Part shown: one piece after another, positions 2,366-48,200 of the stretch | Numbering within the stretch: the stretch's first letter is position 1 | How the letters are laid out: each line of letters begins with the position of its first letter | Source: Haplodiscus bocki | Taxonomy: Eukaryota | Direction of reading: 5' to 3' | Assembly: GCA_965655095.1 (NCBI GenBank) | Contig: OZ296658.1 | Location: 23,622,001 to 23,686,000, forward strand | Length of the DNA stretch: 64,000 bases | The notes under the pieces: generated by a model | The model's input: only the letters and a program-made list of their open reading frames with translations | The model's database searches: none | What the model was told of the DNA's origin: nothing | Position numbers and translations under genes: made by a program

Positions 2366-2399
2366 TTGATGTCTCCGAGACCAGAGGAAAAAAGTAACT

Positions 2400-8819: not shown

Positions 8820-9065
8820 CAAAGTTCTGTTCTACCCTTCTTTTCTCCTATCCTTCCTTTCCTCTACCCTTCTATTGTTCTATCCTTCTATTGTTCTGTC
8901 CTTCTATTGTTCTAACCTTCTTTTGTTCTACCCTTCTTCTGTTCTATCCTTCTATTGTTCTACCAAACTTTTGTTCTATCCGCCTATTGTTCTATCCTTC
9001 TATTGTTCACCCATTCTATTGTTTTAAACTTCTATAGTTTTATCCTTCTGTTGTTCAACTGCCTA
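8820..9065. repeat. Pyrimidine-rich minisatellite (unit like CCTTCTATTGTTCTA)
   Basis: Directly visible degenerate tandem units inside element 1. Confidence 0.8.
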
Positions 9066-14494: not shown

Positions 14495-14975
14495 TAGACT
14501 TCAAAACTTGAAAAAAACTAAAACTAACTTATGATTCACTTCCCTGATGATAAAATTTACGTATATGTGTTTGTGTTTATATTCTTCATAATTCTTTTCC
14601 GAGCTTATACTCTATCCTTATGATCTATACTCTCACTGATTTCTTTTGCTTAGATCTTTCCATGCTCTTGATCTTCATAGTGCTTTGTCTTGCTGATTTT
14701 AATAATAATTGTAAGTCAGATGTTGATATTAATCTAAAACCTAATTTAGTTTTTTATCATAAACGAATTTCTTTACTTGACTCAACAGATAGTAAAAGCC
14801 CTTTCTTTCGAACTCACGCCTGAGACGACCTTCGTTGAGGTGTAGGAGGGCAACAGTCGCAAAAATAAAGTAGGAGCCTTTTCCGGAGTTTTAAGATAGT
14901 TTTCTAGCTCGAAATGGAGTGGCTTTTGAGACTTTCCACTTCTATTTCCAACACCCCACCACTGAACACTTCACA
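14495..14975 (+). repeat. 3' LTR of element 1 (part with demonstrated homology; probably extends upstream to ~13640)
   Basis: Homologous to 1-481. Purine tract at ~13611-13634 and TGACGTCA/TATA motifs at ~13847 and ~13984 suggest U3 upstream, but the start is not fixed. Confidence 0.8.
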
Positions 14976-22835: not shown

Positions 22836-23519
22836 TTTAGAACAGGTTTTCTTGTAGACAGAAAACAAAAACAAGACAACTACTTTTCAATACGAAATGA
22901 CTTTTTGTAGCTCTCTTTGAAAGTCTGTTCAGCTCAACTTATATGCTTTATAGTTTCAATCAATCGCGAGGCAAGCTTCAATTAAATTTGTTGATAAAGT
23001 TGTATGATTCTAAATTATAATTTGTTATTTTAGTCAGCCTTAGAGAGCTTTTAGCAAAGTATTGCTTGATCAAGTTACGTCAGTTTTATTTTTTTAAAAA
23101 CTCGTGTAACCATTTATCGAAAGTATACTGAATAATTTTCTGGCATGAAAGACTAGTAATAACTAATAACTTTCATCATAACGCAGCCAAAACATTTTTT
23201 AGTGTATTGACTATTTGCTTCATAGGCATAACTGAATATTATTTTCAGTAGTTTTAGATTTCTTTTGATATTCCTTATTTGAAGTGACTTCTGCTCAGGA
23301 AATCAAGCCAAATCGCTTCAAATTTGATTTATTGATTACCAAACAGTCACGGTGCATCAATGCCTTTTTCCAATTTGATGAAAACAGTTAGTGTTTATTC
23401 CAATTTTGATCACCTGTTTTTTCTTGAATTTTCATTTTGAATTTTTTCGCCAATTCAACATCATTTCGCTTCCTGTTAAAAAACAAATCCAAAAAACTTT
23501 TGTGGTCGTTTTTCCTCAA

Positions 23520-24922: not shown

Positions 24923-25189
24923 GAGTTAATTTCTTTGATGGAGATAGTATAAAAGTAAATATGTTAGGAAAATAAATATAATATAAGATAAAGCCAACTC
25001 ATCTCACATCAAAGGGGACCCTCCCAAGGTGTAGCACCTTTCACTTGAGGGCCCTGGTGAAAGTACTATATCCTAAGGACCTATCAGAATCTTGACTGTT
25101 CGGCTGGTTAAAAAATAGTTTCGTAGACAACGTTACTGAGTTGAAATTCCTCTACTACAGATAGATCTCTACTACATTTTTTGATGTCC

Positions 25190-26552
25190 GAAATTTGTGA
25201 AACACTAAAGGTTTCCTTTACGAAGTTTTTCGGCACTGTGAGACAAAAAATTTTCGACGGAAACGTGATACCCCCTATTATGCATAAAATTTTTCGATAC
25301 CCCAAATTTTCTGAGACATTGAAGGGATGCCCACGAAATTTTTCGGCACTGTGAGACAAAAAATTTTCGACGGAAAATTGTGATACCCCCTATTATGCAT
25401 AAAATTTTTCGATACCCCAAATTTTCTGAAACATTGACGGGATGCCCACGAAATTTTTCATCCATAAAAACTTTTTGAAACCAAAAAATTCCTCAAAAAC
25501 ACTAGGATTCCCTTACGAAAGTTTTCGGCACTGTGAGACAAAAATTTTGACTGAAAATCGTGATATGCCCCCTCTTATCCATAAATTTTTTTCGATACCA
25601 GAAAATTTCCGGAAAACAGAAGGGTTCCTTTACAAAGCTTTCCGTTTCGGTCCTGTGAGACAAAAAGTTTCGACGACAAAACCGTGATGCCCCCCCTCCT
25701 TCTATGCATGAAAATTTTCGATAAAAGAATTTTTCTGAAACAACACCAAAGTGTTCTCCAATGAAATATTTCGGTACAGGGAGACAAACTTCGACGGAAA
25801 ATCTTGATACCCCCCTTATCCAAACTTTTTCGGTACCCGAAATTAGTGAAACACTAAAGGGTTCCCCTACGAAATTTTTCGGCACTGTGAGACAAAAAAT
25901 TTTCGACGGAAAATCTTGATACTCCCCCCCTTATCCAAACTTTTTCGATACCTGGAATTATTGCAACAGTAAAGGATTCCCCTACGAAATTTTTCGGCAC
26001 TGTGAGACAAAAAATTTTCGACGGAAAATCTTGATACCCCCCCTCTTATCCATTAAATTTTTCGCTACCGGAAATTTTCTGAAACACAGCACAGAAGGGT
26101 TCCCCTACGAAATTTTTCGTCACTGTTAGACAAAAAATTTTCGACGGAAAATCTTGATACTCCCCCTCCCTTATCCAAACTTTTTCGATACCCGGAATTA
26201 TTGCAACAGTAAAGGATTCCCTTTCGAAATTTTTCGGCACTGTGAGACAAAAAATTTTCGACGGAAAATCTTGATACCCCCCCTCTTATCCATTAAATTT
26301 TTCGCTACCGGAAATTTTCTGAAACACAGCACAGAAGGGTTCACCTATCAAATTTTTCGGCACTGTGAGACAAAAAAATTTTGAACGAAAAGTCGTGCAT
26401 AGAATACAGAAATCAGTGGTGGAATTGATGTTTGTAGAAAACTTTCGCAAACTAGATTTTAAACAGTAGTCTCGTTTTTAACTGTGGGCAAATGTTGATC
26501 AAAATATTTGTATTTCTGCGAAAAATATGCCGGTGCTAGCCGGCCGTCTTGT
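25190..26552 (+). repeat. Tandem array of ~115-125-bp units ending in a Helitron-like terminus
   Basis: About 10 units with core TTTTCGGCACTGTGAGACAAAAAATTTTCGACGGAAA; terminal hairpin GCCGG-TGCTAG-CCGGC then CTTGT at 26529-26552. Confidence 0.8.
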
Positions 26553-31600: not shown

Positions 31601-31605
31601 GACTT

Positions 31606-33197
31606 TGTGACGTGTGTGGTGTGGTGTTTTCATATTCTTTTTCTGCTCGAGTGGCTTGCTTTTATTGTATTGAATGGTGGTGGCTGAATTTTATTCTTTC
31701 TTAACTATACGTCTTAAATAATCCACTCTATGGTGTTTGGCAGAACCGTAAGACGTTCGGTTCACAACCATGCAAATCTTCCGTACTGCAGAGCTTCCAG
31801 GTTCTACTTGGTTCGGGTCAATATGCTACGCTGGTACCTTACCGTCACTTAGCCCACCGCACGGTATAGAGTGAATTTGGTTTGGAATACTATCAACTCT
31901 ATGCAAACGAGTTGTTTCTTAATTCTAAATTTTATAATCTCGATTAATGGTGGTGGTGGTTCTGACTTTCTATCTTCTCAAATTTTAACAAGCTCTGAAC
32001 AAATTTCATCTTTCTTTAATTTTCTTTCGAATGCGTGTTTCAGGTTCTCGTCACTTAAATGGTTTTGTTAGTAGTAAGTCTGGGATTACTCTACTACTAT
32101 TGAGTTGAAAAAGTAGTTTTAACTACTTTGGGGTTACAAAAATTTTGATCTGTTTAGAGCTTGCTATGGTAAAAGTGAAAGAAATGAGATTATGAAGTTG
32201 ATTGAATTGATTTTTCGTTAAGCTTTGACAAAATTGTAGTTTACAATGAATGAAATCTAATATATCTCAAAGAACAGAACTCACGACATTATGGTTTGAA
32301 TGTTGGTGTGGTTGATCGATGGTTGGAGGTCGTCTATGCAGTCTTCGTGGGGCAGTCTTTGGATATTTGTGATTTGATCGTAGGATTTGTTCAAGAGAGA
32401 TTCGAAAATTTATGAAATTGAAAAGAATACAAAATTTAGCAAGAAAAGTTGAACGTCGAACGTTCAATAAAATTTTTGAAGACGTCTAACGTCAAAGAGT
32501 TTTTCAAAATTGCAAAAGTCAAAAAGAACGAGCAGCTGAGTTTTGAAAAGTGGGGTTCTAAAGGCAGAGTTTTGCGAGTCCGCCTTTTATAGTTTTTGTC
32601 ATGCTCAACTGTGACCAGTAATATTTTGCTGGTCATTGTCTGGTGCATGATCAGCCTTTCATGCTTCAAGGTTTTACTATTTTTGGGGTATCTGTCAAGG
32701 AATCATCCCCCAAAAGTTACTATTATTATTTCAACTGTTCTAAGTTTGAAGCATTGACGAAATTTTGTTTCTTCGCTTCAAGAAAATAATTCTTGATCGA
32801 AAGCAGTTGGGAGTTACTATTTCTATAAGTAACTAAAATTTGATGGCTACTGAATTTAAGCATCTGATGACATTCGTTGTTGAGTTGGCGGCCAATTTTG
32901 CTGACGTACATTGATTTGAATTTTGGCGGTCGTCTCCACAACAGAGGCTGTTTCGTCAGGAGAATAAATTTAGATAGTCTTCTGGTGTGGTGAGATTGTG
33001 CCATCAATAGCGACGTGATCAAATATTTTATATGAAGCACCGGATAAGTGAGTTCTTTAATTATAAAAAGCATCGATTGAGTGGTTAAAATATGCGCGTT
33101 TAAGATTCAAGCTAAGTCATGTTTAAGTTTAACGTTGTTTCAATTCTTCATTCTTTTCAGCATTCTTTCATATATTATGACTTATGGCATTGTCATA
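31606..33197 (-). repeat. 3' LTR of element 2
   Basis: Direct repeat of 44273-45864 (offset 12667); termini TATGAC...GTCACA on the element strand; AATAAA at 31666-31661. Confidence 0.97.
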
Positions 33198-33200
33198 ATG

Positions 33201-33211
33201 CCTTCCTTTTT
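33201..33211 (-). other. Polypurine tract
   Basis: AAAAAGGAAGG 3 nt upstream of the 3' LTR. Confidence 0.8.
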
Positions 33212-33230
33212 GTAGTTTGTGTCCCACAAA

Positions 33231-33591
33231 CTAGTGTTGTTGAATATGAAAGTCGCCCAAACAGTACGGTTGGCCTTTGGTGTACGCGTCCACCGCAGAA
33301 GGTCCACAACATTTGAGAATAGCTTGAGCGAGAGTGTCATCTGTAGCAACAGGTGGTGGATCAGTCTGCGTGGATTGATTGGCCATGCGGGGCGCACTAA
33401 TGAAGAGTTGTGATGGTGCGCGCAGGAAACTTCGATATGTTGTATGGTTTGTTCGTTTGAGGACGACCGGGCCAGGTGGAGAGGTGATTTTGAGGACCCG
33501 GTATTGATTGTTATCAAGGAGGTGAACCACATCACCTACGCGAACGTTGTGAGTTCGCCCATCACACGTTGTCAAGGGAGCAAAAGGAAGA
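33231..33591 (-). CDS. Accessory ORF4 (spliced; ~121 aa), beta-rich N-half plus STQTD motif
   Basis: T-rich tract then AG| acceptor at 33593-33592; 1 nt then in-frame LPFAPLTTCDGRTHNVRVGDVVHLLDNNQYRVLKI...NQSTQTD; ends just before the PPT. Confidence 0.65.
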
Positions 33592-33794
33592 CTAAAAAAA
33601 ATCAAAGGGAGACCCACAACGGTCTCGCAGGGAGGAAGCTGCTAAGCTTGCAAAAAGAGTTCGCAGATGAACTTCAGTGAGGAAGCTGCTAAGCTTACAA
33701 AAAGGGAGTTCACTAAGAACTACTGAATTGAAAAATGTAAAAGGTACAAAACAAGCGAATTAAGAACAGACGTGTTAGAAAGCGAGTACAAACG

Positions 33795-34221
33795 TTATTC
33801 TTCAGTTTGTAAATGTCTAATATTTTGTTGGGGGCGTCTTCGGGGTGAAGGACGGCGCTGGGCTGGCTGGCTGGTTGGAGTGGCTTGGGCAAGAGTACTA
33901 GGATGGATACGAGGTGCTTCTAATCGAAAATAGAGGTGGGGGTGCTGGCAAACGGGACACTTCTCGTACCCACGGGAAAGGAGAAAATTTAAGCAAGGGG
34001 GACAAGTATAATGCGGGATATGGTGATGGATGTGTAACGTAATGATCTTATGTACGGGGAAAGTTTTTAAACAAACGGGGCAGGAGCGATAAAGGGGGCC
34101 GAGAGGGCAGCGGGGATGAATGGGTGTATCGTCATATAGCGGGGCATTCATGGAGTCGGATGGGTCTTGCTGTCGGCGGACGAGGTAGTTTTGGTCGTTG
34201 TGGTAGGTTTTGAATGGTGCG
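33795..34221 (-). CDS. Accessory ORF3 (spliced; ~143 aa), RING-like zinc finger
   Basis: GTTTTTTATTTTAG| acceptor at 34223-34222; CPVC...TLH.....PHYTCPPC..........CPVC; Arg-rich C-terminus. Confidence 0.8.
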
Positions 34222-34381
34222 CTAAAATAAAAAACTATTGATACGTAAAAATTTATAAATGTGGTAATCTAAAAATCTAAAATGCTGAGTAAGATGAATG
34301 CAAAAGTGGTATAAAAGCAGTTCGTGTAAGTTTGAAACGAATGTTTGAAGGTTTAAAAGTTTTAGGTTCGCAAAATCAAAT

Positions 34382-34748
34382 TCAACCAGGGCGGCCATCA
34401 GCAGGGGGTGCGAGGACGGGTCTCACCCGTTCTTCTCTTTCAATAGCAGTTTTTCGAAAATTAATGGGGTCGCGGTATAACTTGAGGAGGGCACGGCGGA
34501 CAATTTGATATCGGACGCGATCCCAGCGATTGAGGTTGGGGAGTGAATCAGAGTGGTATAAAAAGAGAACAAATTCGTTCCATCGGGGGTCTTTATAGGG
34601 GAAGTGTACCGCAGTTTGGTCATTTAGGGTGAGTTGAATGGTGCCCTCCGGGAGGATCATCAAGTGGGTGATTGGGTAGCGTATGTCATTTAGCACACAC
34701 GCCCATGTAAAATCCAGGGAGACGGCCTGCCATGTGTGTGCATCGGCG
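34382..34748 (-). CDS. Accessory ORF2 (spliced; ~123 aa), unknown function
   Basis: CATTTTCTTTTAG| acceptor at 34750-34749; 1 nt then in-frame ADAHTWQAVSLDFTWACVLNDIRYPITH...; GC-rich island between AT-rich spacers. Confidence 0.7.
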
Positions 34749-34947
34749 CTAAAAGAAAATGATTACGAGGGACGCGGCTACGCATCACGAAGAGAGCTTT
34801 ACGCAAAAAGCTAGAACAAATTATAAAATATATTCGTGAGCAAGTGAAAGAGATATAAAAGATAGTGAACGGATTAATATAATGTAGTATTGAGTTTTAA
34901 CGAGTATTCGTGATTGTTTATTAAGTTGAACGAAAAGTTTATGTAGT

Positions 34948-35332
34948 CTAACGAAAGTTGAGTATGGAAGCCATTACGAAGGGATCGATGTAGGGGATGG
35001 GACGGGAACCACCACAAGAAGGACAGATTGGGTTGGTGAGGTAGTAGAGGGTGTAGGAGCACGGGTTGCAGACAGGAGTAGACTGGGGGTCAGTGAGGCA
35101 CTTGGGATTAAAGCAATGAGGAACGGCATAGTCGAGGTTACATTTTGTACAAATGGGAATACCAAGGGCCTGGAATGGGTCCACGGGGGCACGACAAGCG
35201 GGGCACATGTGGGTATTGTATTGGATAAGGTAACTGCAACAAGAGCGGCAGATTCGATGGGGCACGTTACTCGGGGCGTGGAGGGTGACAAGGGTATCAA
35301 CATCGCGCAGGCAAACGAAACACTGTTCAAGG
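34948..35332 (-). CDS. Accessory ORF1 (spliced; ~129 aa), RING-like zinc finger plus further Cys clusters
   Basis: CTAAT branch point, pyrimidine tract, TTTCAG| at 35334-35333. Extending to the acceptor completes the finger: CFVC...TLH.....PHRICRSC..........CPAC, then CTKC..HC....C and CNPC...CPSC. Confidence 0.8.
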
Positions 35333-35480
35333 CTGAAATGGACGGAAGGACGGATTAGAAGGGGGGCACGCTAGTGCCACACAGAGGCTCCGAAGAGGCG
35401 TTTACTTTTGGATACTTACTTATTTTACATGGTGAACTTTGTACATTTAAGCACTGTTATACATTACTTGGGGACGACAC

Positions 35481-37857
35481 TTAAGCTGATGTAGTTTGGG
35501 TAGTGTCGACGTGAGGTACCGGAGCTGGAGTGAAGGTGGTCAGAACCAACGGAGGTGTTGTACGAATGGTTCTGGTTGGTGCGGTGACGTCCGGGTACAG
35601 TTTTTCTTCATCTTCGGCGGAGTAAGGAAACGGTGCGTTAGCTTCAGTTTTCAGTAAAGCTTCCTTAGCAAGAGCACGGAGTGCAGTAAATTCATCACGA
35701 GTCAAAATTAAAAATGAAGAGTCTGAGTCTGGTTGGATGTCGTTCGTGACATGAATAAATTGGCCAGATTTATTCTTGAAGAAACGACGTGGGGCACAGC
35801 AAAGTGCACGTGCCTGTCTGTGAAAGAGTGGAAAGTTAAGTAAAAACAAAAATAAAGAAAGTGCGATTGATCCGCCTGCGATTAAGAATGAAGTCTTCGC
35901 TGGTACAAATTTGTCAAGTGCTGCTTCTGTTGCAGGATTGAGAGACGTATAGTGTGCTACAATTGGTTCGGTCAATTTTTGCAAAGTTTCAGGATCCATT
36001 CGTCTAACATCTGGAATTTCAGTCAGTTCCAACTGTACGCTCTCAAGAATTGATTTCCGGGCGGCACCGATTGAGTAACTTGGAAAATTGAGTCGATCGA
36101 AAGGGACATTTTGAAAAACTTGATTCAAAGGTGGTGCCAGTTTGATTGTTGCAATATACGGTTCCGGAGTTGTTTTACATGCGTCCATATCAGGTGACAG
36201 GACAAGATCGCCTTGATTAATATAAATGGTACTCTCACAACTCGGTCGAAGTACACAAGCCTGACAATCAATGGTGGACAAACTGAGTCCGTTGCGGCTA
36301 TCGTTCTTAATGTCCATTGTGGGGTTGCGAGAAATGAGGTGGTAAACGCCATTTGCCAGGTAGATCGCCTGTGGGGCTTCCGGGAGAAGGACAGAGGAAA
36401 CGGGGCAATTTCGGAGTGCTGGTATGTCTTGATTAAAATACAACGACGTCAAACAGAGAAGCGTTTCATCAGTAGTAGTCGAAAAGCCTTTGCGGCACAG
36501 TTTGATTCGATTACTGCCCGTGCATTGTTGTAGCGTAGACGCGGCTAACTCTGCAAAATTCGTATTGTCTGTTGCAATCGCGACGTAGGGTTTCGGGAAT
36601 TGGTAAACTGATGCCGTCTTGCCGTCGTCATTGGGCTGATACAGAGGTTCCGCTTGAAAGACATTGTACGTAGCGGACTTAGAGTTCATCGGGATGCCAA
36701 GTACAAAAGAGATGCCTTTAGGTAACATTGTGACTTCTAGTACGATTTGCAATTCGTAATAGATAGCTTCGAATCCCGATGGTATAGCAGGTGTCAGTTT
36801 GCTACCTTTCCGAAATTCTTCAGCGGCTAATTCTTGTACTATTGTGGCAAGTTGAGTGGGGAGTAGGAATTGTGGTGTGATATGTCCAGTAGCGAGAGAT
36901 GAGATGATTGAAAAGAAATTGTTTCTATACGCGTAAAATGCTGCACGAAAAGCTTTGAAATGAGTGTACAAAGTGCCGATTTGTGATAAATACAGTTGTG
37001 AAGACTGGAGAAAGTGGCGGTACGCACTTTCAAATTGGTAGCAACGGAACGCATCTTCCAGAGTGTATACACGTGCAAGCATATAAGAAATATGTTCGTA
37101 AGTGTCGTCTTTAATGCGTTCAACACTTTCTTGGGTCAGACGAATTTCGTCTCGGAGTAAAGCAAGTTTTTCGTTGTTTTGATCTTGGACGGTCTGAAAT
37201 GCCTGTTGTTGTGTCTTTTGTTGTTTGGTTACTTGATCGAGTTCTCGTTCTAAGTCTTCAGTAGAGTCGCAAAGATTGAAAATGGAGAGTGCGCTACATG
37301 CTGCATCTTTGATCGGTTCGCCTAAGATGAATCCAGTGCCAGCGGCAAGTGCTGCGACAGCACCAATGAGTCGTCGTGTTCTGTTGTGAGGCGCTTCTTC
37401 ATCGATAGAGCGTCTTTGTCGAGGGGCTCCGAGAGACTCGACTGGTGGGAAGAATGATTCCGCGATATCGCTCAAAGTATGAAGTTCGGATTGGGCTTCA
37501 TTAATTTCGGTTGTAAGATGGTTGTACATGTTTTCCATTTGTTGTATAACCGGTATGTGAGATTCATTGAACGTGTTGTTTTTGCATCCTGCCCGTGCTA
37601 CGCGGTATTGCATGCGTGAGAGCTTTGTCTTGCTTTCGAGGATAACAGCATGCACGCCGTCGATATTGAGATCCGGGAGCGTCGGAAAAGGAGAGAACAG
37701 TCGAATTTGACTCTCGCTTTCTGAAGTCACAACTTGATATTTAAAAATGAAAGCGGCTCCTCGTTCAAATTCCGGTAGTTGTTGGTTGTTGACAGTCGAA
37801 TATTGTATGGTGTTTGCAATGAGAAGTGTTGTCCAGATGAAAATTGGCGTTGGGATC
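35481..37857 (-). CDS. env: Envelope glycoprotein, class I F-like fusion protein (spliced; ~793 aa)
   Basis: Acceptor TCTCCTTTTAG| at 37859-37858 precedes a signal-peptide-like IPTPIFIWTTLLIANTIQYS; furin-type sites RQRR and RTRR; fusion peptide LIGAVAALAAGTGFILG; heptad repeat; Cys-rich region; TM FLIAGGSIALSLFLFLLNFPLF. Confidence 0.9.
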
Positions 37858-37874
37858 CTAAAAGGAGACCTTCG

Positions 37875-40800
37875 TTATTTCTGATGATAAGTTTTGCGTT
37901 GTCTTGCAGGAGTTTTACTAAATTTCGTTCCTGACTGTTTTTGTTGTTTTCGCTCTGGAGAGTTATAACTTTTAACTATATCAGGAAGATATGCCGTAAA
38001 AAGCGGTTCTGCTTTTCTTTGTGAGGACGTGTTAGGTCGTAGTTGCATGTTAGACGTGTTTGCAGGAGGTGTTCTCCTAAGACTTCTAGCTGCGGCGTCC
38101 ACAATTTCCGTGACGTTGTCAACTGATAATTGACTTTCGTGGAGAAAGACATTCTCAGGTATAAGAGGTTGTATGTCAGTTTGAGGAGTAACCGGTGGTT
38201 GTATCGCAACGTCATTTCTGGTGTGTGGACTTGGGGGTTCTCGTGTTGGTGATGGCGAGAACACAGGAGGTGATCTCGTTACTTCACGTCTTGTCGGTAC
38301 GGGCGAAATAAGTGGCGAAATTCTACTTGGTGTAGTTGATGCAGTTGTTCGTTCTACGGTAGGTGTTGGTGTGAAAATACTAGAAGATGCAGGCAGAAAA
38401 CTAAGACAATCATCGTGATTAAGTGTTCCATCTATATATTTGCGTGCGTCTGTTAGGTTTTGAGTTGACTGAAAACTTCTTGGTTTATTTCTTGTAGGTA
38501 CATTGGACGTTGGCGGAGGTTCGAAAAATGGTTTCAATCTATCATAGTGTACAATTTGTTGTTTTGCAGAGTTTTCTTCTTTAATTCTGAATGTGACATC
38601 GTTCAAACATTTTTCAATGATATATGGTCCTTTCCAAGGACTTGCGAACTTAGAAGTTGTTCCTACAGCAATGACTGGATGATAAAGTAAAACTTTTTGT
38701 CCTTCTTTGTATGTTGGACCGTGAACCTTTTTGTTATAGATAGCATTTCGGCGTTTTTGTTTTTCATTCAAATTACGTCGGACTAACTCAAATGCTCGTT
38801 GGAATGCGCGTTGTTTGTTGTGCACAAATTCATGAATGTCTGTAGTTACATTTTCTTGTGGGTTAGGATACATGCAATCTAAAGGTAAACTCAACTCTTG
38901 TCCAAAAACTAGGAACTGCGGTGTATATCCTGTTGATTCATGTACCGAAGATCGATATGCCATCATTACGTAAGGCAGTTGTTGTGACCAGTTGCTTTGT
39001 TCTTCATTAATACATTTTGCTAACATGTTTTGTAAAGTTTTATTCATTCTCTCGATCACCGCATTTGACTGAGGATGAAAAGGTGTTGTGCGAGTTTTGT
39101 CCATTTCAAGAAGTTGCATTAATTGTTCAAAAAGTTTTGATTCGAAATTTCGGCCTTGATCACTATGAAGGCTGTGCGGACAACCAAAGCGACTGATCCA
39201 ATGATCAACTAATGCGTTTGCTGTTGTGGTAGCTGTTTGATCTGGTAATGGTATTGCTTCGTACCATTTTGTGAAGTGATCGCCAATTACTAAGATGTGT
39301 TTATTTCCATTTGACATTGGCAAAGGTCCCATAAAGTCAATTCCAATGTGATGAAAAGGATAACTGGCTTGCCATTCTACTAAAGCGTGATGATATTTCT
39401 TGGGTGGTCCCGAACGTTTTTGACATTCCGGGCACCGACTGACAAACAATTTTGTGTCTTCCTGCTGTCCTGGCCAGTAGAATCTTTGTTTTATTTTCTC
39501 TGAGGTTTTAGCAACTCCTAAGTGTCCGGCTGTTGGTGATGAATGACATGCTGATAGAATTTCTTGTGTCATTGACGGTGGTACTATTTGTTGCAATACC
39601 ACTTGGTTATCTGCGGTTTCGAATTTCCTGCACAAAATTCCATCGATGAGTTGTAAACTTTTCAGTTGGTTGTTAAGTTGCCATGCTAGCCTAGGAAGTC
39701 CTTGCAATTCTTGTGAGGTGGGCACTTTTCCCTTTTCAATCCATTCAATCAATTTAGACAATGCCTCATTTTGTCGTTGCGCTTGTCCTAACGCAGAGTG
39801 AACTGGTGTTTCTGTCTGTTTTCGTGATTGTTCATCTTTATTTCGATCATAGACTGTGATTGTGAGGTTCGACTGTGCACAAATTTCTCTGATAAGACGT
39901 TCAACTTTGTACCATTCTAATCGATCAAGTCCACAACCGGCTTTTGGCATACTAATTTCAGTGACTTTATGTTCATTTGCGTGCTTCGTCATTGCCTCTA
40001 GTGATTGTCGCAAACTATCGTACGTTGGTTTTTGAAAATAGCGGTTTTTTGTAACTAGGTGGTAGATGAAACGTTCGTCTACTTGTTGGACAAAAAGGGG
40101 AGAGTTCGTACTCTCAGGAAAATTGTACGGGAACTTGCGTTTGAAACTTCGGGCAATTCCCGCGGACATTTTAAAGTCTGATGATATGCAATGTGCTAGT
40201 GAGTCTTCTGAGTCAAAAAGATTACCATTTTTATGAATGAGTTCGAAAAATTTTGTTTTCACTGGTTTATCTATGTTTTCTTTGCTTTGAGAACTAGTAA
40301 CTTGATTTACAATGGGGATTCGTGAAAGTCCGTCGGCGTGACCAATACTTTTGCCGGGTCTGTGTTGCACTTCATAATCAAATGCCGCTAACTTTTCGAG
40401 CCATCGTGCTGTTAATCCATCTGGATCTTTAAAGTTATGCAACCACTGCAATGCACGATGATCAGTCACAATTTTGAATTTCCTCCCGAGCAGATAATGT
40501 TTAAAGTGTCGAGTAAAAGTTACAATTGCTAAAAGTTCTCGTTTTGTCGCAGAATAGTTTGTTTGAGATTTTGAAAATGCCTTAGATGCGTAGCAAATAG
40601 CTCGCTCTTTACCGTCTTGCACTTGGGCTAATACTGCTCCCATTGCTGTTAGACTTGCGTCAGTGTACAAAATGAATGGTTCTTTTACGTCCGGAAAGGC
40701 TAAGATTGGTGTAGAAGACAAGTGTTTCTTTAAATTTTCAAACGCTTCTTGCGTTTCTTCTGTCCAAGTAAAAGAACTCTTAATTTCACTAGCTTTATGC

Positions 40801-42554
40801 AATGGTCGGGCTATCATAGCGAAGTTTTTGATATACCGTCTGTAATATGAACAAAGTCCCAAAAACGACTTGACATCTGTTTGATTTTGTGGTACTGGAA
40901 AGTTTTGAACTGCTTTGACTTTTTCGGGATCGGCTTCCAATCCATTTTTGCTGATTACATGTCCTAAGAACTGAACTTTTGTTTGGAAAAAGGCGCATTT
41001 TGTCGGATTGATTTTTAGATTCGCCTCACGAAATCTTTGGAAAACTTGTTGCAGTCTTTTAATGTGCTCCTCTGGAGTTTTTGAAAAGATGATACAATCA
41101 TCTAAATAAGGTACTGTAATGTTCCACGTGAGTCCAACAAGCACGTGTTCCATTAGACTTTGAAATGTGTTCGGACTTCCCGTTAGTCCCATTGGCATGC
41201 GTAGCCATTTAAATGATCCGAAAGGAGTACTAAACGCTGTATAATTTTGGCTTTTGGGTTCCATTGGTAGCTGATAAAATCCCCAAGACATATCTATTGT
41301 TGTGAAATAAGCACTTCCTTGAAGTGTATCGAAAATTTCCTCTATTGACGGTATCGGCCAGCAAGACTTGATTGTTTGTTCATTCAGTTTTCTATAGTCT
41401 ATTACTAATCGTAGTTTTCCATTCTTTTTTGGAACTAGCATCGCTGGTGCACTATATGGACTATGACATGGTGTAATCAACTCTTTGTTCATGAAGGCAT
41501 CTATTTTCTCTTTTAAATCATCTTTGTAATGCACTGGCATTCTTCTATTCGGTAATTTTATTGGTTGTGAGCCTGGCTTCACATCTATTCTATGACTAGT
41601 TGCATCGCATTTTCCGAGGTCCCATTGATTGATTGAAAAGATATCACTATAGTCATCTATTAAATTTCTAAAATCTGCCCTGCAGTTATTGTTTATTTCT
41701 TTGCTAATTGCTTTCTTTACATTCTCCAAGTCGTACTTGGGATCTACTTCATTATAATTTTTCTTTTGTTTCTGATTTATTTCTTGTATCAGACGATCTG
41801 ATACCAGTTGGGACGATCCCAATGTTGTATCTTTGTAAATTGTTAAAACTTCATCATTTGTATTTGCTACTGTGATAGGAACTATTCCTTTTTCAAAACT
41901 AAACAAAGCATCTTGTGCTATTTGAGTTTCATTATTTATGAAGCGCTCGTGCGGTTCAAACAAAGCGACTCTCGCTACTGGTGGCGCTTTCCAACCAGGA
42001 ATTGTGCCGGGCACAATCATAACATGTTGTGGTGGTATTGAGACTTTCTCTAATGCCACGACTCTATAAACTTGTTTTTCGTCGAACGAAAACTGTTTTC
42101 TGTAAAGAGGGACCAGTACATTTTTATCAATTTTCAATTTGCCTTCAGAAAATAGTGCATCACATTTATTTGCTTCAAGAAAATCAAGTCCCAGTAAACA
42201 ATCTGATGCTGCTTCTATTAAGACGTAAAATGTATGCTCGTACGTTTTGGGACCTATTTTGATTGGTACGGATACTGTGCCTTTAATTTGAATGGGCATC
42301 TGATTTGCGCTGCTGAGTCTTGTTGTACTTGGCTGTATTTTGACTTGATGATTTTCATTGATTTGATTGAAAAGTTTTTCACTAAGACATGACACGCTCG
42401 CTCCACTATCGCAAACGGCTTCGACCTGTTTGTTCAAAATTGAAATCTGTACATACAAACTTCGATGATCCACAACGGAATTAAGAAGCTGAGTAAGTGG
42501 GCCTTCATTAGTGTCGTCTACGTGTTGACCCCGGGACGTAGACTGGTCTAGTTT
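37875..42554 (-). CDS. pol: Pol polyprotein PR-RT-RNase H-macrodomain-integrase, reached by -1 frameshift from gag
   Basis: DSGA protease, YLDD RT, YTDAS/RELLAI RNase H, HHCC plus IDF/SDQG/ERMN integrase, GPY motif. The frame is open from the slippery site; the listed 1532-aa ORF starts at 42473. Confidence 0.97.
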   Translation of the reverse strand, partial: KLDQSTSRGQHVDDTNEGPLTQLLNSVVDHRSLYVQISILNKQVEAVCDSGASVSCLSEKLFNQINENHQVKIQPSTTRLSSANQMPIQIKGTVSVPIKIGPKTYEHTFYVLIEAASDCLLGLDFLEANKCDALFSEGKLKIDKNVLVPLYRKQFSFDEKQVYRVVALEKVSIPPQHVMIVPGTIPGWKAPPVARVALFEPHERFINNETQIAQDALFSFEKGIVPITVANTNDEVLTIYKDTTLGSSQLVSDRLIQEINQKQKKNYNEVDPKYDLENVKKAISKEINNNCRADFRNLIDDYSDIFSINQWDLGKCDATSHRIDVKPGSQPIKLPNRRMPVHYKDDLKEKIDAFMNKELITPCHSPYSAPAMLVPKKNGKLRLVIDYRKLNEQTIKSCWPIPSIEEIFDTLQGSAYFTTIDMSWGFYQLPMEPKSQNYTAFSTPFGSFKWLRMPMGLTGSPNTFQSLMEHVLVGLTWNITVPYLDDCIIFSKTPEEHIKRLQQVFQRFREANLKINPTKCAFFQTKVQFLGHVISKNGLEADPEKVKAVQNFPVPQNQTDVKSFLGLCSYYRRYIKNFAMIARPLHKASEIKSSFTWTEETQEAFENLKKHLSSTPILAFPDVKEPFILYTDASLTAMGAVLAQVQDGKERAICYASKAFSKSQTNYSATKRELLAIVTFTRHFKHYLLGRKFKIVTDHRALQWLHNFKDPDGLTARWLEKLAAFDYEVQHRPGKSIGHADGLSRIPIVNQVTSSQSKENIDKPVKTKFFELIHKNGNLFDSEDSLAHCISSDFKMSAGIARSFKRKFPYNFPESTNSPLFVQQVDERFIYHLVTKNRYFQKPTYDSLRQSLEAMTKHANEHKVTEISMPKAGCGLDRLEWYKVERLIREICAQSNLTITVYDRNKDEQSRKQTETPVHSALGQAQRQNEALSKLIEWIEKGKVPTSQELQGLPRLAWQLNNQLKSLQLIDGILCRKFETADNQVVLQQIVPPSMTQEILSACHSSPTAGHLGVAKTSEKIKQRFYWPGQQEDTKLFVSRCPECQKRSGPPKKYHHALVEWQASYPFHHIGIDFMGPLPMSNGNKHILVIGDHFTKWYEAIPLPDQTATTTANALVDHWISRFGCPHSLHSDQGRNFESKLFEQLMQLLEMDKTRTTPFHPQSNAVIERMNKTLQNMLAKCINEEQSNWSQQLPYVMMAYRSSVHESTGYTPQFLVFGQELSLPLDCMYPNPQENVTTDIHEFVHNKQRAFQRAFELVRRNLNEKQKRRNAIYNKKVHGPTYKEGQKVLLYHPVIAVGTTSKFASPWKGPYIIEKCLNDVTFRIKEENSAKQQIVHYDRLKPFFEPPPTSNVPTRNKPRSFQSTQNLTDARKYIDGTLNHDDCLSFLPASSSIFTPTPTVERTTASTTPSRISPLISPVPTRREVTRSPPVFSPSPTREPPSPHTRNDVAIQPPVTPQTDIQPLIPENVFLHESQLSVDNVTEIVDAAARSLRRTPPANTSNMQLRPNTSSQRKAEPLFTAYLPDIVKSYNSPERKQQKQSGTKFSKTPARQRKTYHQK
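39849..40250 (-). other. TARG1/OARD1-like macrodomain within Pol
   Basis: NGNLFDSEDSLAHCISSDFKMSAGIARSFKRKF...IYHLVTK....KPTYDSLRQSL...ISMPKAGCGLDRLEW.KV..LI. Confidence 0.9.
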
Positions 42555-42557
42555 AAA
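42499..42557 (-). promoter_or_regulatory. -1 ribosomal frameshift signal
   Basis: U UUA AAC directly before the gag UAG, 7-nt spacer, 8-bp stem GTCTACGT/ACGTAGAC; pol is in the -1 frame. Confidence 0.85.
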
Positions 42558-43840
42558 GTATTTTGTTGCTGCGAGGAATTTGCGTTGCGGTCTTGATTGT
42601 AGTTTCGTGAATTTTGGTTGAAATTCGAATTTTGCTGCCTATTGTTTTGGTTTTGTCGTGGTGCTCTACATTCACGAGACATATGTCCCAGTCTTCCGCA
42701 ATTAAAACAAGCTTGACAATCCCTGGATTGGTGATTTGTTCTGTTACAATGCCTGCATGGTTGTTGATTTGTGTTGTTTCTGTTTTGTTGCTGATTTGGT
42801 GTATTGCGATTGTTGTTATATCTGTTGTCTTGTTGATTGCCACTGTTGTTGTATCTATTGTTTTGATTGTTATTGTTATATCGGTTGCTATTGTTGTTTG
42901 AATTTCTATAATTTGGATTTTGATTTGTACTTGCACTTTGTCTATGTGGTCCGGGACTATTAAAACGAACGGAGCGACCGTCGGTACTACTTGAACGTGA
43001 ACTCGAAGAGTTTTGATTTGTTTGTGGTAGAGCTTTTTGAATTTCTTGTCGGATTGTCTGTATTAATGTTCCCATCATATCGTCTTGTGAGGTGGATGTT
43101 GTTGCCATCAATGGTTGCGGGGGAGTGGCTGAAACCATGTTTACTGTGGCCTGGGATCCACTTCTAAGACTGGGATCCATTTCCATGAACGCATGTAGTT
43201 CGACTGCGAGGGCTAGAGCAGCATCCGGACTGGCTGGTTTACTCTTTCGAAGTTCCCATCTCAGCTGGGGATCATGAAGTCCTTCGATGAAACTAGTGAG
43301 AACCATTTGTTCTTCGATGAGGGGTTGTCCCCTATAAACTCTTCTAGCAAGTGTTCGAATATCACAAAGAAACGCGGCGATAGTTTGGTTTGGTTGCTGC
43401 CGCGCAGCTTTCAGTTTTGCTTTAAGAACTTCAACATTTGTAGTGTACGTGGTTCGAAAAGCTGCTACTAATTGATCAAAATTCTGTTGTTGTGCTACGG
43501 TTAAGGTTGTGTAAAAATGCAAGGCGTTTCCTTTGAGTCTTAATGCAAAATAGTTCGGTCTGTTATCAGTGGTGGCCGTGTGCCATCCTGAAAGTGTTGC
43601 GGCTGTTGTGAATTGTTGTAAGTAATCTTCAAAATCTCCTTCGCCGGTGAAAGCTTCTGGCATTAAACACGACGGGAGGGCCGAAAAAACTGCGCCGGCG
43701 GTGGCCGTCGACGTACTTGGTGTGGTCGGCGTGAGAGGGGTGAGAGAAACGGAACCGCCGCCGCCTGATCCGGATCCAGGTCCGCCGCCACCACCGCTTC
43801 GTGGTGATCCGCTTCTTGATGGGGGGGTTGACGACGCCAT
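42548..43840 (-). CDS. gag: Gag (430 aa)
   Basis: LKGNALHFY capsid-like region, two CCHC knuckles (CRHCNRTNHQSRDC, CFNCGRLGHMSREC), Asn/Gln-rich flanks. Confidence 0.95.
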   Translation of the reverse strand: MASSTPPSRSGSPRSGGGGGPGSGSGGGGSVSLTPLTPTTPSTSTATAGAVFSALPSCLMPEAFTGEGDFEDYLQQFTTAATLSGWHTATTDNRPNYFALRLKGNALHFYTTLTVAQQQNFDQLVAAFRTTYTTNVEVLKAKLKAARQQPNQTIAAFLCDIRTLARRVYRGQPLIEEQMVLTSFIEGLHDPQLRWELRKSKPASPDAALALAVELHAFMEMDPSLRSGSQATVNMVSATPPQPLMATTSTSQDDMMGTLIQTIRQEIQKALPQTNQNSSSSRSSSTDGRSVRFNSPGPHRQSASTNQNPNYRNSNNNSNRYNNNNQNNRYNNSGNQQDNRYNNNRNTPNQQQNRNNTNQQPCRHCNRTNHQSRDCQACFNCGRLGHMSRECRAPRQNQNNRQQNSNFNQNSRNYNQDRNANSSQQQNTLN

Positions 43841-44250
43841 TTTTGAACAAAAGCGTTCTTAGATCTTATTGAGTTTTAACCGAACAAAACAAAAAAACAC
43901 TGTTTTAGAGTTTTAAAGTTTTAAAGAAAAAGAAAATCAAAAAAACTGTTAAGAAAAAAACACACTTAAAGTTGTGATAAACACGCAGTGTCTTAAAATT
44001 TTGTTCAATCAACTTCTTTTTCTTTTATTAGCCAGCTCTTCTCAAGAGCGAAACAAGTAGTTTTAATTTTAAGTTGAGTTGAGAGCGACCGTTCGCGAAA
44101 GCAACCGTTCGAGAAAGCAACCGTTCGAGGAAGAGCAACCGTTCGTGGTTAATGTTTTATCACTTACCTTGTACTGGCAACTGAAAACTTTAAGATTTAA
44201 GTTTTACGTTTTACAAAAAAAACCCAAAAACAAAAGAAGGAGAAAGTCAG

Positions 44251-44268
44251 ATCCCACCCTTGTCACCA
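44251..44268 (-). other. Primer-binding site
   Basis: TGGTGACAAGGGTGGGAT, 4 nt inside the 5' LTR boundary; complementary to a tRNA 3' end ...ATCCCACCCTTGTCACCA (Ser/Leu-like; identity not established). Confidence 0.85.
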
Positions 44269-44945
44269 TTTTTGTGACGTGTGTGGTGTGGTGTTTTCAT
44301 ATTCTTTTTCTGCTCGAGTGGCTTGCTTTTATTGTATTGAATGGTGGTGGCTGAATTTTATTCTTTCTTAACTATACGTCTTAAATAATCCACTCTATGG
44401 TGTTTGGCAGAACCGTAAGACGTTCGGTTCACAACCATGCAAATCTTCCGTACTGCAGAGCTTCCAGGTTCTACTTGGTTCGGGTCAATATGCTACGCTG
44501 GTACCTTACCGTCACTTAGCCCACCGCACGGTATAGAGTGAATTTGGTTTGGAATACTATCAACTCTATGCAAACGAGTTGTTTCTTAATTCTAAATTTT
44601 ATAATCTCGATTAATGGTGGTGGTGGTTCTGACTTTCTATCTTCTCAAATTTTAACAAGCTCTGAACAAATTTCATCTTTCTTTAATTTTCTTTCGAATG
44701 CGTGTTTCAGGTTCTCGTCACTTAAATGGTTTTGTTAGTAGTAAGTCTGGGATTACTCTACTACTATTGAGTTGAAAAAGTAGTTTTAACTACTTTGGGG
44801 TTACAAAAATTTTGATCTGTTTAGAGCTTGCTATGGTAAAAGTGAAAGAAATGAGATTATGAAGTTGATTGAATTGATTTTTCGTTAAGCTTTGACAAAA
44901 TTGTAGTTTACAATGAATGAAATCTAATATATCTCAAAGAACAGA

Positions 44946-44956
44946 ACTCACGACAT
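44946..44956 (-). promoter_or_regulatory. Putative shared leader: start codon plus splice donor ATG-TC|GTGAGT
   Basis: First ATG downstream of the TATA box, A at -3, consensus donor in phase 2 matching all five downstream acceptors. Confidence 0.75.
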
Positions 44957-45250
44957 TATGGTTTGAATGTTGGTGTGGTTGATCGATGGTTGGAGGTCGT
45001 CTATGCAGTCTTCGTGGGGCAGTCTTTGGATATTTGTGATTTGATCGTAGGATTTGTTCAAGAGAGATTCGAAAATTTATGAAATTGAAAAGAATACAAA
45101 ATTTAGCAAGAAAAGTTGAACGTCGAACGTTCAATAAAATTTTTGAAGACGTCTAACGTCAAAGAGTTTTTCAAAATTGCAAAAGTCAAAAAGAACGAGC
45201 AGCTGAGTTTTGAAAAGTGGGGTTCTAAAGGCAGAGTTTTGCGAGTCCGC

Positions 45251-45258
45251 CTTTTATA
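45251..45258 (-). promoter_or_regulatory. TATA box of the element 2 LTR
   Basis: TATAAAAG on the element strand, implying a start site near 45225. Confidence 0.65.
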
Positions 45259-48200
45259 GTTTTTGTCATGCTCAACTGTGACCAGTAATATTTTGCTGGT
45301 CATTGTCTGGTGCATGATCAGCCTTTCATGCTTCAAGGTTTTACTATTTTTGGGGTATCTGTCAAGGAATCATCCCCCAAAAGTTACTATTATTATTTCA
45401 ACTGTTCTAAGTTTGAAGCATTGACGAAATTTTGTTTCTTCGCTTCAAGAAAATAATTCTTGATCGAAAGCAGTTGGGAGTTACTATTTCTATAAGTAAC
45501 TAAAATTTGATGGCTACTGAATTTAAGCATCTGATGACATTCGTTGTTGAGTTGGCGGCCAATTTTGCTGACGTACATTGATTTGAATTTTGGCGGTCGT
45601 CTCCACAACAGAGGCTGTTTCGTCAGGAGAATAAATTTAGATAGTCTTCTGGTGTGGTGAGATTGTGCCATCAATAGCGACGTGATCAAATATTTTATAT
45701 GAAGCACCGGATAAGTGAGTTCTTTAATTATAAAAAGCATCGATTGAGTGGTTAAAATATGCGCGTTTAAGATTCAAGCTAAGTCATGTTTAAGTTTAAC
45801 GTTGTTTCAATTCTTCATTCTTTTCAGCATTCTTTCATATATTATGACTTATGGCATTGTCATAACTTAATAGCCACCATTTCCACCAGCAATCGTAATG
45901 CATTTGATAAATCGTCTTATCATGGATTTCAAGTGTTTTTCTGGTTACCGGCAAAATAAACTCAATGGCGAAAAAATAACAATCTCTAAAAGAAATCACA
46001 CGAAGCCTCTTTTGTTGAAATGTTGTGTTAATGCATGTCTTGTACCAAATTGAAATGACTGTGTTTTTCTATATTTGAATGGATAAACATTGATGTATTG
46101 TTTTTCAGCGACATAAATTTTTCAGCGAGATCTCGAAAGTTTTGCTGATGTTCTGTAAAATTGTTTTTGCAGAGCTAGTCTTACTCAGAGTTTAATTTTT
46201 TTTATTTTTCTGATTTTGAAGATTCCCAACTATTTTGTTGCGTTTTTTCATCAAAGGTTAGAAAGCAACTGAGTTGTTACTACAAGTATTTTTTTCCATT
46301 GTTCTCCACAAAAAGCAGTTGGAAGAATTTATGAACCAGAAGTTGAAGATTATCTATCCTGTGTAAGGGTCTCGGAGAAAATCAGCGCTAAACAGCGGTG
46401 GTTCACACGTTTGACGTTTTTCAGCGCTGTTTTGTGCTGATGTAGAAAACCTTAGAATCACCACCGTTAATCAGAGTTGTTTCAAACCCAATCAGCCCTG
46501 TTTTTTAATGAATCAAAAATGTTTAGCGCTCGCTAAAGGTGGGTTGCATATTGAAAAAAAACTGCTTTTAAAGTCTTGGGGAAATATCATGATCATCTAA
46601 TGAAAAATTCTATAGAATGTCCCAGTTGCAGAAAGACTTTTTCCGTTAAAAATTGTCGAAGGTTATAATTCAGTGATTCTAATTCTGACAACACATAGTT
46701 CTCAGTGAACGCAATTACGGTGAGTGAAATATGTCTGTCGAAGAACTTGGTTGCAAAAATCTGTTTTGTTTGACTTTCGTGCGATCAGAGCATCTGTCCA
46801 GAGGACTTGCATGAATAGGAATGCGCGTAACCGTCGGCCACTAAAGAACCGAAAAGACTCTGACCAAAGAATTAGCTCACATTTCGTTTTTTTTTTTTCA
46901 ATAGTTTTCCTAAGTAACAGTTCTCACTGCACGTTGCTCCGTGAGATACTTGCTTGCTCCCTGTAAACTTATCCTATGTCAAAGACTCACTGGATAATTA
47001 AACCACATATTTTACATGGTAATGCGTGCTGTACATCGAACTGTGAACAGCAGCCATCCCAATTCGGAGCCGTTTAACGCATGACAAGACTGTAATAAAA
47101 AAATACAAAGCTGGGAAAATGAGTTAAGTAACAGATATTCAATCTTTGATTATTTTCTGTCTTTTTCTCACCGTACCCGGGTCGAAGTTTTGGTTGCAAA
47201 TTTTCCGGCATAAGAGTTTGAATTGCGGTCAAAATTAGCTACAAAACTACTATTTATCTGAAACAAAAAAATCTAAGGAAAATTAAAATACATTCAAAAC
47301 AGAACTCTATATTGTTTTTGAAAAAGAAATTTTTACGTGCTCAAACTTGTTATACTTTTTGGCTGGTTGTTGCTAACACCGAAAGCCCACACTTTTGAGG
47401 AGCATATGCTCTGAAAGCTTCGGAACACTTTGTTCATAGAATTTTTTTGAAAAATTTCGAATGGCAATAGTCTTTAGATTCTTCTCGTAGACCTTTATTG
47501 CCAGCAAGCAAAGTAACCATTTTTTATTGTTTAGAGTTCTTTTTTTTAAAAAAAGCCCACGTAGGAATTGTTTCTCTCAGCGTTCATTTTTGATCTCATG
47601 TTGATATCAAAAAACTAGTAGAAAAAGTTAACTTAATTGGAGGAAGCAAAAGAATTTAGGGAGGTTAATGTATACATTATTCACATCCAACAGGGATGCA
47701 AAAAGAACGTAACCGCCCGTTTACTTTGCAACCTTCTACAGTTGAACAACTACGAGTTAACAGAATTGGTTCATGACTACTTCTCTCTTTACGACTATCA
47801 TATTTTGTACGAGTAAACCAGCAGTGGGATTTGACATAACCGACGAACACATATTTTTTTGTTTTGAAATGATTTTTTTTTCGACGGGACAGCTATAATA
47901 GGCAGTTGCAGTTTTGTTCAAAACAGACTCAGAGTTTCCAAGACATTTCTTTTTCTTGGAAAGAGGCAAGATTCTACATTTTTACTCAAATCAGTTGCTT
48001 CTAACATTTTTTTCTCAACGATGCACTTTGAACGTCAAACGTACAAACCAGAAGACGTCAAGGACGATTTGTCAGAATTTCTCATTTTTTCATATCTTTA
48101 GCAGGTAAAAGGAATAAGAGCAGTTGCTTTTTACCGGATTTGATGCGCCCATACTGTTTGTTTCTCTCTCTCTCTCACACTGCTTTTAATTGTCAAAAAC

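Follow-up and report, generated by a model that had tools for sequence, protein, structure and literature searches.

Structure of the Env-Bearing Retroelement

The window, that is, the whole stretch of 64,000 nucleotides of Haplodiscus bocki DNA that was analysed, contains an env-bearing Ty3/gypsy (Metaviridae) LTR retroelement located at positions 31606-45864 on the minus strand. The characters of a Ty3/gypsy element are all present: LTRs, a target-site duplication, a stretch resembling a primer-binding site (PBS), a polypurine tract, gag and the order protease (PR), reverse transcriptase (RT), RNase H and integrase (IN). First of all, the 5′ LTR (44273-45864, minus strand) and the 3′ LTR (31606-33197, minus strand) are both 1592 bp long and identical to each other, so the insertion is considered to be recent, and the element is flanked by a 4-bp target duplication ACTT at 31602-31605 and 45865-45868. 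The PBS-like stretch, starting with TGG, is located at 44251-44268 and the polypurine tract at 33201-33211, both on the minus strand. The PBS pattern used for the tRNA has a single match in the genome, at which neither ARAGORN nor Rfam called a tRNA. At L113:1498-1540, a PBS-like sequence runs on into an apparent reverse complement of a tRNA T-arm, and no tRNA gene was called there.

All the coding regions of the element are read from the minus strand. The gag ORF (42548-43858), recognised as an ORF and by Pfam, carries zinc knuckles, and immediately 5′ of its stop codon there is a slippery heptamer, TTTAAAC (42551-42557); pol follows in the -1 frame, presumably by frameshifting. The pol ORF (37875-42638) is 1587 aa from stop to stop and is arranged as PR-RT-RNase H-macro-mini-IN-tail. 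In Pfam, the aspartyl protease occupies residues 63-155 (42174-42452), the RT residues 402-562 (40953-41435, with the YLDD motif of the core) and RNase H residues 625-753 (40320-40766 by Pfam and sequence), and the integrase (38529-39584) is composed of a zinc finger (residues 1019-1076), the rve core (residues 1094-1189) and a C-terminal domain (residues 1337-1370). A conserved segment before the integrase zinc finger (39594-39806) is, judging from its position, probably the "mini" bridge domain described in the available part of the paper on ancient errantiviruses (PMC13524379).

Downstream of pol, an open env-like ORF of 797 aa (35481-37874) is conserved in six families, and it has basic cleavage-like motifs, a hydrophobic stretch, long predicted helices and a C-terminal hydrophobic helix. 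In errantiviruses, the third ORF encodes a fusion glycoprotein of the F or gB type; the ORF found here has no match in Pfam and nothing significant among the PDB profiles (the best is a "fusion protein" at E 0.26), and its structure model is of low confidence (pLDDT 39.6) and has no fold match. Three small ORFs lie between the env-like ORF and the 3′ LTR, including one at 34948-35370 with a weak RING-like match in Pfam (zf-RING_4, E 3e-4, under the cut-off).

Several other features are distributed in the window. A decayed second LTR-type element with an integrase is located at 1366-11526 on the plus strand; one fragment in it weakly matches the Monjiviricetes fusion glycoprotein (E 1.5e-5, under the cut-off), and two 483-bp repeats that are 86% alike (1-482 and 14494-14976) may be its LTRs. 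An open frame of 507 aa on the minus strand (21366-22886) encodes in turn a molybdopterin oxidoreductase, a Mo-co dimerisation domain and a cytochrome b5. There are also an array of degenerate repeats of about 115-120 bp at 25176-26391 and a 16-bp tandem array at 8809-9080.

The TARG1/OARD1-Type Macrodomain in Pol

From 40250 to 39849 on the minus strand, the translation is free of stops and gives 134 aa, corresponding to residues 797-930 of Pol, and this segment is, with hardly any doubt, a complete TARG1/OARD1-type macrodomain. The sequence-only reading had placed an intact macrodomain between RNase H and integrase, and this is borne out by the open frame, the Pfam domain order and the phmmer search against PDB, in which human TARG1 is the top match (E 1.1e-31, residues 7-134). 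In the profile search, the isolated domain scores 29 bits against Pfam Macro and passes the cut-off of 22; when the whole ORF is scanned, Macro (residues 854-915) reaches 20.6 bits and stays under the same cut-off. The AlphaFold model of the domain has a pLDDT of 95.7 and is superposed on TARG1, DarG and alphavirus macrodomains with TM values of 0.90, 0.86 and 0.74-0.79, respectively; since the TARG1 alignment was fed into the model, this fold match depends in part on the sequence match. A search of the ESM Atlas returned only generic RNase H/integrase clusters, below 0.9.

Two motifs had been proposed as the catalytic Lys and Asp motifs of TARG1, and the alignment agrees with this. LVTK is located at 40058-40047 and GCGLD at 39938-39924 (both minus strand); in the phmmer alignment, the K of LVTK (codon 40047-40049) pairs with Lys84 of TARG1 and the D of GCGLD (codon 39924-39926) with Asp125, 41 residues apart in TARG1. 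The numbering offset was counted by hand, and K50, R86 and R126 of TARG1 all land on the expected letters. Lys84 and Asp125 form the catalytic dyad of TARG1 according to the available parts of PMC9411070 and bioRxiv 10.64898/2026.03.31.715305, the former of which also states that DarG lacks the Asp. Moreover, the pocket residues His32, Cys33, Ser35, Asp37, Gly43, Gly121 and Gly123 of cellular OARD1 are conserved in the element domain. Positions 50, 86 and 126, which in human TARG1 are the RNA-docking triad K50/R86/R126, are R/R/R in the window copy, and the helical segment that follows the glycine-rich loop of cellular TARG1 is replaced in the element domains by a shorter proline-rich loop.

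The domain had also been called "TARG1/DarG-type". Of this name, the TARG1 half holds and the DarG half is given up, because DarG is without the Asp of the dyad. In phmmer, DarG reaches E 6.5e-6 only; against the DarG family NF048014 (NCBIfam), the macrodomain scores 46 bits, below the cut-off of 250; and no ADP-ribosyltransferase that could be a DarT-like toxin partner was found among the element ORFs scanned. Macrodomains of the RNA-virus type, represented by alphaviruses, are 10-14% identical to the element domain and rank far under TARG1.

Copies and Conservation in the Genome

The genome searched comprises 1.5 billion bases, and about 5,900-6,000 first-look candidates for the domain were obtained, of which the best 150 were scored per search. 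Twenty stretches of 10 kb were taken, comprising 18 elements in six families (A-F) and two host-like loci. The RT cores of families A-F are 80-85% identical to the window, the macrodomain lies between RNase H and integrase in 18/18 elements, and env is present in 17/18. An assembly artefact and a single-copy accident are both ruled out. Further queries yielded a seventh family, which means that at least seven families carry the domain at the RNase H-integrase site. In all 57 element loci from two further queries, RNase H precedes the domain and integrase follows it; since only the best 150 of about 5,900 candidates were scored per search, this leaves room for other positions in Pol within the genome. 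The families of this genome form one long-branched clade in the RT-RNase H tree (SH-aLRT 100) and likewise in the macrodomain tree (99/98).

In order to avoid selecting loci on the macrodomain itself, a query with RNase H alone was also chosen. All 30 loci fetched in this way carry the domain, 28 of them (window included) complete and in frame; one of the remaining two has a frameshift inside the domain and the other is cut off along with the integrase, and there is no clean macrodomain deletion among the 30. Another gypsy family with open Pols of 1283-1285 aa, together with a diverged env-bearing element, has the macrodomain in none of the six stretches fetched. Since gypsy elements of this genome can keep Pol open with no macrodomain in it, the domain is dispensable for some gypsy elements here.

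The copies differ in their accessory ORFs. One family A copy (L098) is without env, and its gag and macrodomain-bearing pol are still open. In families B-F (L082, L085, L087, L089, L091-L094, L099 and L100), env is followed by a fourth ORF, at least 250-360 aa long, for which weak coiled-coil matches only were obtained in the seven scanned. In its place, family A has small ORFs whose cysteines are arranged in a RING/zinc-finger-like way (window 33795-35370).

The macrodomain is under long-term purifying selection. For 10 pairs of real copies, each pair taken from one family, the pooled pN/pS is 0.10 for the macrodomain, 0.036 for the RT and 0.51 for the Pol tail, as pairwise codon counts in which the pairs share sequences and hence are not independent; between the window and L081, for example, there are 40 synonymous and 7 non-synonymous differences. 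Between families, dN/dS is unusable because dS is saturated; there the macrodomain is about 50% identical, similar to the protease and linker domains, and the RT is 78-84% identical. Among own-genome loci matching the pattern, the catalytic Lys is present in 76/77 and the Asp in 77/77 (79 examined, many near-identical), and the dyad is present in representatives of all six aligned families; L083, an own-genome locus fetched separately, has Asn at the Asp site. In the 14 carriers outside the clade of this genome (see below), Lys is kept in 14/14 and Asp in 13/14. The K50/R86/R126 positions are basic 3/3 in the window copy, in families B, C and D and in P0003 (5/7 family representatives have all three), 2/3 in families E and F, and 0/3 in the host-like ORF L096a; the triad is poorly retained in outside elements and is variable among cellular proteins as well.

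When the window Pol is compared with L097 and L081, the synonymous divergence jumps between neighbouring domains; against L097, pS is 0.04 in the macrodomain and 0.44 in the next domain. These jumps suggest recombination among subfamilies.

Origin and Carriers outside This Genome

The best host-like match in the genome is a 328-aa open frame (G000:C2:12.306 Mb) with no retroelement domain nearby. In the phylogeny, which had been proposed as a check against the host TARG1, this ORF branches apart from the clade of the elements (99/98). Its identity to the element domain is 46%, and that of fish and axolotl OARD1 is 41-51%. A recent capture from the host gene is ruled out on these grounds, and the capture is regarded as old because the host-like gene is no closer to the element domain than vertebrate OARD1 is. 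Host-like TARG1 genes were seen at L096:4844-5827 and 7092-8627 and at L095/L127: the 328-aa frame has an unknown N-terminal part and none of the three basic RNA-binding residues, an adjoining copy is broken up and has a repetitive tail, and a further one lies on C5.

Outside this genome, a query of RNase H, macrodomain and zinc finger was run against 1.84 billion representatives, from which the best 150 rows were taken and 151 proteins scanned. Among the matches listed, a macro match is present in 27/151 proteins, and most are without the domain. Thirteen of the 27 carriers resemble the clade of this genome and 14 fall outside it; in the latter, the domain follows RNase H in 10 (three of these end before the integrase) and the integrase core in three, and P0218 has one degenerate copy upstream of the RT, which places the domain on the integrase side of RNase H in 13/14. 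The named carriers, annotated as uncharacterized, include beetles and a sawfly, namely Harmonia axyridis, Rhynchophorus ferrugineus, Leptinotarsa decemlineata and Athalia rosae; one carrier row bears the label of a bacterial MAG protein, probably by misassignment. The Pol of Athalia rosae (P0187) has a pair of macrodomain-like copies in the RNase H-integrase interval, and the second of the pair is much diverged.

The RT-RNase H tree was built from 55 rows. Only proteins having one RT-RNase H pair followed by an integrase were admitted, and three near-duplicates of own-genome families were dropped. In AU tests, run with a quick model after the tree had been inspected, a single clade of all 16 macro-bearing Pols is rejected (p 0.004), and a single clade of the 13 Pols with the domain at the RNase H-integrase position is not rejected (p 0.21). 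It is likely from these trees that the domain was captured or moved more than once among gypsy Pols, and with p 0.21 for the 13 carriers, repeated capture at the RNase H-integrase site itself is not supported.

Probable Mature Protein Carrying the Macrodomain

The motif hydrophobic-Asn/Gln-x-hydrophobic is found at the protease N-terminus in 7/7 Pols and 3-6 residues past RNase H in 6/7, the window copy being VNQV (40299-40310, minus strand), a putative protease site that would separate RNase H from the macrodomain; P0003 has no protease-like motif after RNase H. The same motif occurs in 0/7 linkers between the macrodomain and the next domain, and its background rate is 0.004 per residue, counts that belong to a motif defined after inspection of the sequences, to related Pols that are not independent and to short linkers that are often without the motif by chance. 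With a protease-like site before the domain and none after it, the macrodomain probably stays on the integrase, and a macro-integrase is the likely mature product.

Ty3/gypsy Gag-Pol goes into particles, which is the basis for expecting packaging here, and the TTTAAAC heptamer with pol in the -1 frame fits a packaged Gag-Pol. The sequence-only reading had the domain packaged with Pol and protecting RT/integrase or cDNA; its place in Pol stands, and with regard to the carrier, the evidence favours the integrase more than the RT.

Host PARPs as Candidate Writers

There are 31 PARP-domain matches in the genome. Twelve long PARP ORFs were scanned and comprise eight UPF1/ZNFX1-like helicase-PARP fusions, one WWE-PARP, two ankyrin PARPs and one PARP alone; one helicase-PARP catalytic domain could be aligned over the full triad, in which H-Y-E is kept. 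The helicase-PARP ORFs (G000 C12:72.98, 73.20 and 74.38 Mb; C11:84.96 Mb; C2:27.77 Mb; C5:43.71 Mb; C3:80.39 and 96.85 Mb; L114-L120 and L123) are an expanded family of long single-frame SF1 helicase fusions of 1680-2243 aa, one of them partial; in several, the PARP domain is present twice. This family is a candidate for nucleic-acid-sensing ADP-ribosyltransferases, tied to the element by co-occurrence in this one genome.

Proposed Function of the Macrodomain

The conserved dyad and pocket suggest that the macrodomain is quite probably an active enzyme. What it would act on is judged from its class and its place in Pol: the integrase-borne TARG1-type domain would erase ADP-ribose added by the host to the RNA, the cDNA or the integration complex of the element, a reading to which a probability of about 0.5 is given, and the chances that counter-defence is the role for which the domain was selected are about even.

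In the proposed mechanism, Gag-Pol frameshifting would put the macrodomain into the particle, the protease would cut after RNase H and not after the macrodomain to give the macro-integrase protein, and the macrodomain would then hydrolyse ADP-ribose by the Lys/Asp mechanism of TARG1. The targets would be ADP-ribose linked to the bases or the ends of the element's nucleic acid, or to Glu/Asp of its proteins, with host PARPs as the writers. The genome of the element passes through RNA, single-stranded DNA and gapped DNA and may be exposed to all the marks that TARG1 removes, and an eraser would protect these intermediates. In particular, guanine-N1 and uracil-N3 adducts occupy the pairing edge and would halt reverse transcription, which would explain why the TARG1 class was captured instead of the class found in RNA viruses. 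In the available part of bioRxiv 10.64898/2026.03.31.715305, TARG1 is the only tested hydrolase that removes U-N3 ADP-ribose on RNA, it also removes G-N1, the human enzyme needs K50/R86/R126 for RNA substrates, and the natural role of nucleic-acid ADP-ribosylation is said to be still open. As for DNA, TARG1 is described as non-redundant for thymidine-linked ADP-ribose (PMC8501950, in part), and the ADP-ribose that PARP1 puts on DNA, at single-stranded telomere DNA and at Okazaki fragments, is likewise removed by it (PMC11102865, in part).

The same enzyme could also serve ordinary DNA repair. During integration, PARP1/2 would modify cDNA ends, single-stranded gaps and nearby proteins, and the domain would clear these marks so that joining and gap repair can be finished. 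This agrees with the integrase-side position in 13/14 outside Pols and all 57 own element loci, with the removal of PARP1-made DNA marks by TARG1 (PMC11102865, in part) and with a full-length, top-scoring PARP-domain match in the genome. However, TARG1-like genes are already present in the host, most gypsy elements manage integration with no macrodomain, and the copy upstream of the RT is left unexplained, so that this role appears rather unlikely.

Chromodomains steer integration in chromoviruses, and the targeting domains of other gypsy elements sit after the integrase core. By analogy, the macrodomain may be a reader bound to the integrase, which would steer integration to ADP-ribosylated chromatin or DNA breaks; it is predicted to remain on the integrase, and in three outside Pols it follows the integrase core. 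But both dyad residues have persisted through a long divergence, and binding alone would need neither, which makes a reader improbable.

Processing of metabolites or primers, that is, of O-acyl-ADP-ribose or of the ADP-ribose that caps RNA ends or the tRNA primer within the particle, finds some agreement in the closest PDB match, which is named O-acetyl-ADP-ribose deacetylase, and in terminal-phosphate ADP-ribose, which is also a TARG1 substrate (PMC8501950, in part). The activity of human TARG1 is much higher on base-linked than on end-linked or small-molecule substrates (bioRxiv 10.64898/2026.03.31.715305, in part). According to the available part of PMC8501950, however, several host hydrolases act redundantly here, so such a role gives little reason for the TARG1 class and is very improbable. 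The role of a passenger or structural spacer, in which the domain came in by a single capture and was retained for folding and the open frame alone, would suit the identity of only about 50% between families, far under the 78-84% of the RT, and the open Pol frames of macro-less elements, but pN/pS of 0.10 against 0.51 for the Pol tail, the invariant pocket and catalytic residues, the 30 RNase H-chosen loci without a clean deletion and the presence of the domain in distant lineages leave it scarcely credible.

Returning to the erasure of host-added ADP-ribose, a wider and more tentative proposal can be made, which we hold to be rather doubtful as a whole. Animal defence may have an ADP-ribose arm, in which the helicase-PARPs that are expanded in this genome would put ADP-ribose on bases in the RNA or cDNA of elements and stop reverse transcription; in response, an integrase-borne eraser of base-linked ADP-ribose would have been added to Pol more than once in gypsy lineages. 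A TARG1-class domain kept by selection in Pols of reverse-transcribing elements that expanded recently points to nucleic-acid ADP-ribosylation as a pressure on retrotransposons. Viral macrodomains are the best evidence for antiviral ADP-ribosylation, yet they come from RNA viruses and belong to another class, and a small soluble domain and a candidate writer family in one genome make the proposal directly testable.

Comparison with Known Systems

Among the literature matches listed, no description of a TARG1-type domain in a gypsy Pol was found, in a search that had subscription journals and repeat databases outside its range. The available main text of PMC13524379 has 0 matches for "macro" or "ADP", and a motif search of its seven supplementary files, which may hold no protein sequences, was negative; the available parts of PMC6338049, PMC8195603, PMC7217437, PMC8672886 and PMC4299795 add nothing further on macro domains in retroelements.

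The closest known protein is human TARG1/OARD1/C6orf130 (PDB 4J5Q, 4J5R, 4J5S and 2L8R), with 44% identity in the structural alignment (TM 0.90), the Lys84/Asp125 dyad, the AHCIS and GCGLD motifs and basic residues at 50, 86 and 126; the element domain differs from it in being embedded in a retroelement polyprotein, in the proline-rich loop that replaces the helical segment and in being known here from sequence and a model. The DarG antitoxin macrodomain (PDB 5M31 and 5M3E; NF048014) shares the ALC1-like class and the catalytic Lys (TM 0.86), whereas its identity is 23%, the element domain scores 46 against 250 bits for the family, DarG has no dyad Asp, and the element ORFs have no toxin partner.

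With regard to mobile elements, the ancient errantiviruses (Chary and Hayashi, PMC13524379) are alike in LTR-gag-pol-env, in the RT-RNase H-IN order, in having many near-identical copies and in a bridge with a probable mini domain; in the available part of that paper, however, the bridge is listed with RNase H-like, mini and pseudo domains only. The teleost epsilon-like endogenous retroviruses (Basta et al. 2009), compared here through one review sentence (PMC4977317), are also retroelements with a captured macro domain, but they are vertebrate retroviruses, and their macro domains are described in that sentence as additional ORFs. Finally, the macrodomains of coronaviruses, alphaviruses and hepatitis E virus likewise lie inside a viral polyprotein and, in the sources as available, counter host PARPs, whereas they belong to a different class (10-14% identity and TM 0.74-0.79 for alphaviruses), and RNA viruses have no DNA stage. 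The TARG1-class domain in a gypsy Pol extends this known theme of viral macrodomains to another enzyme class and to elements of another kind.
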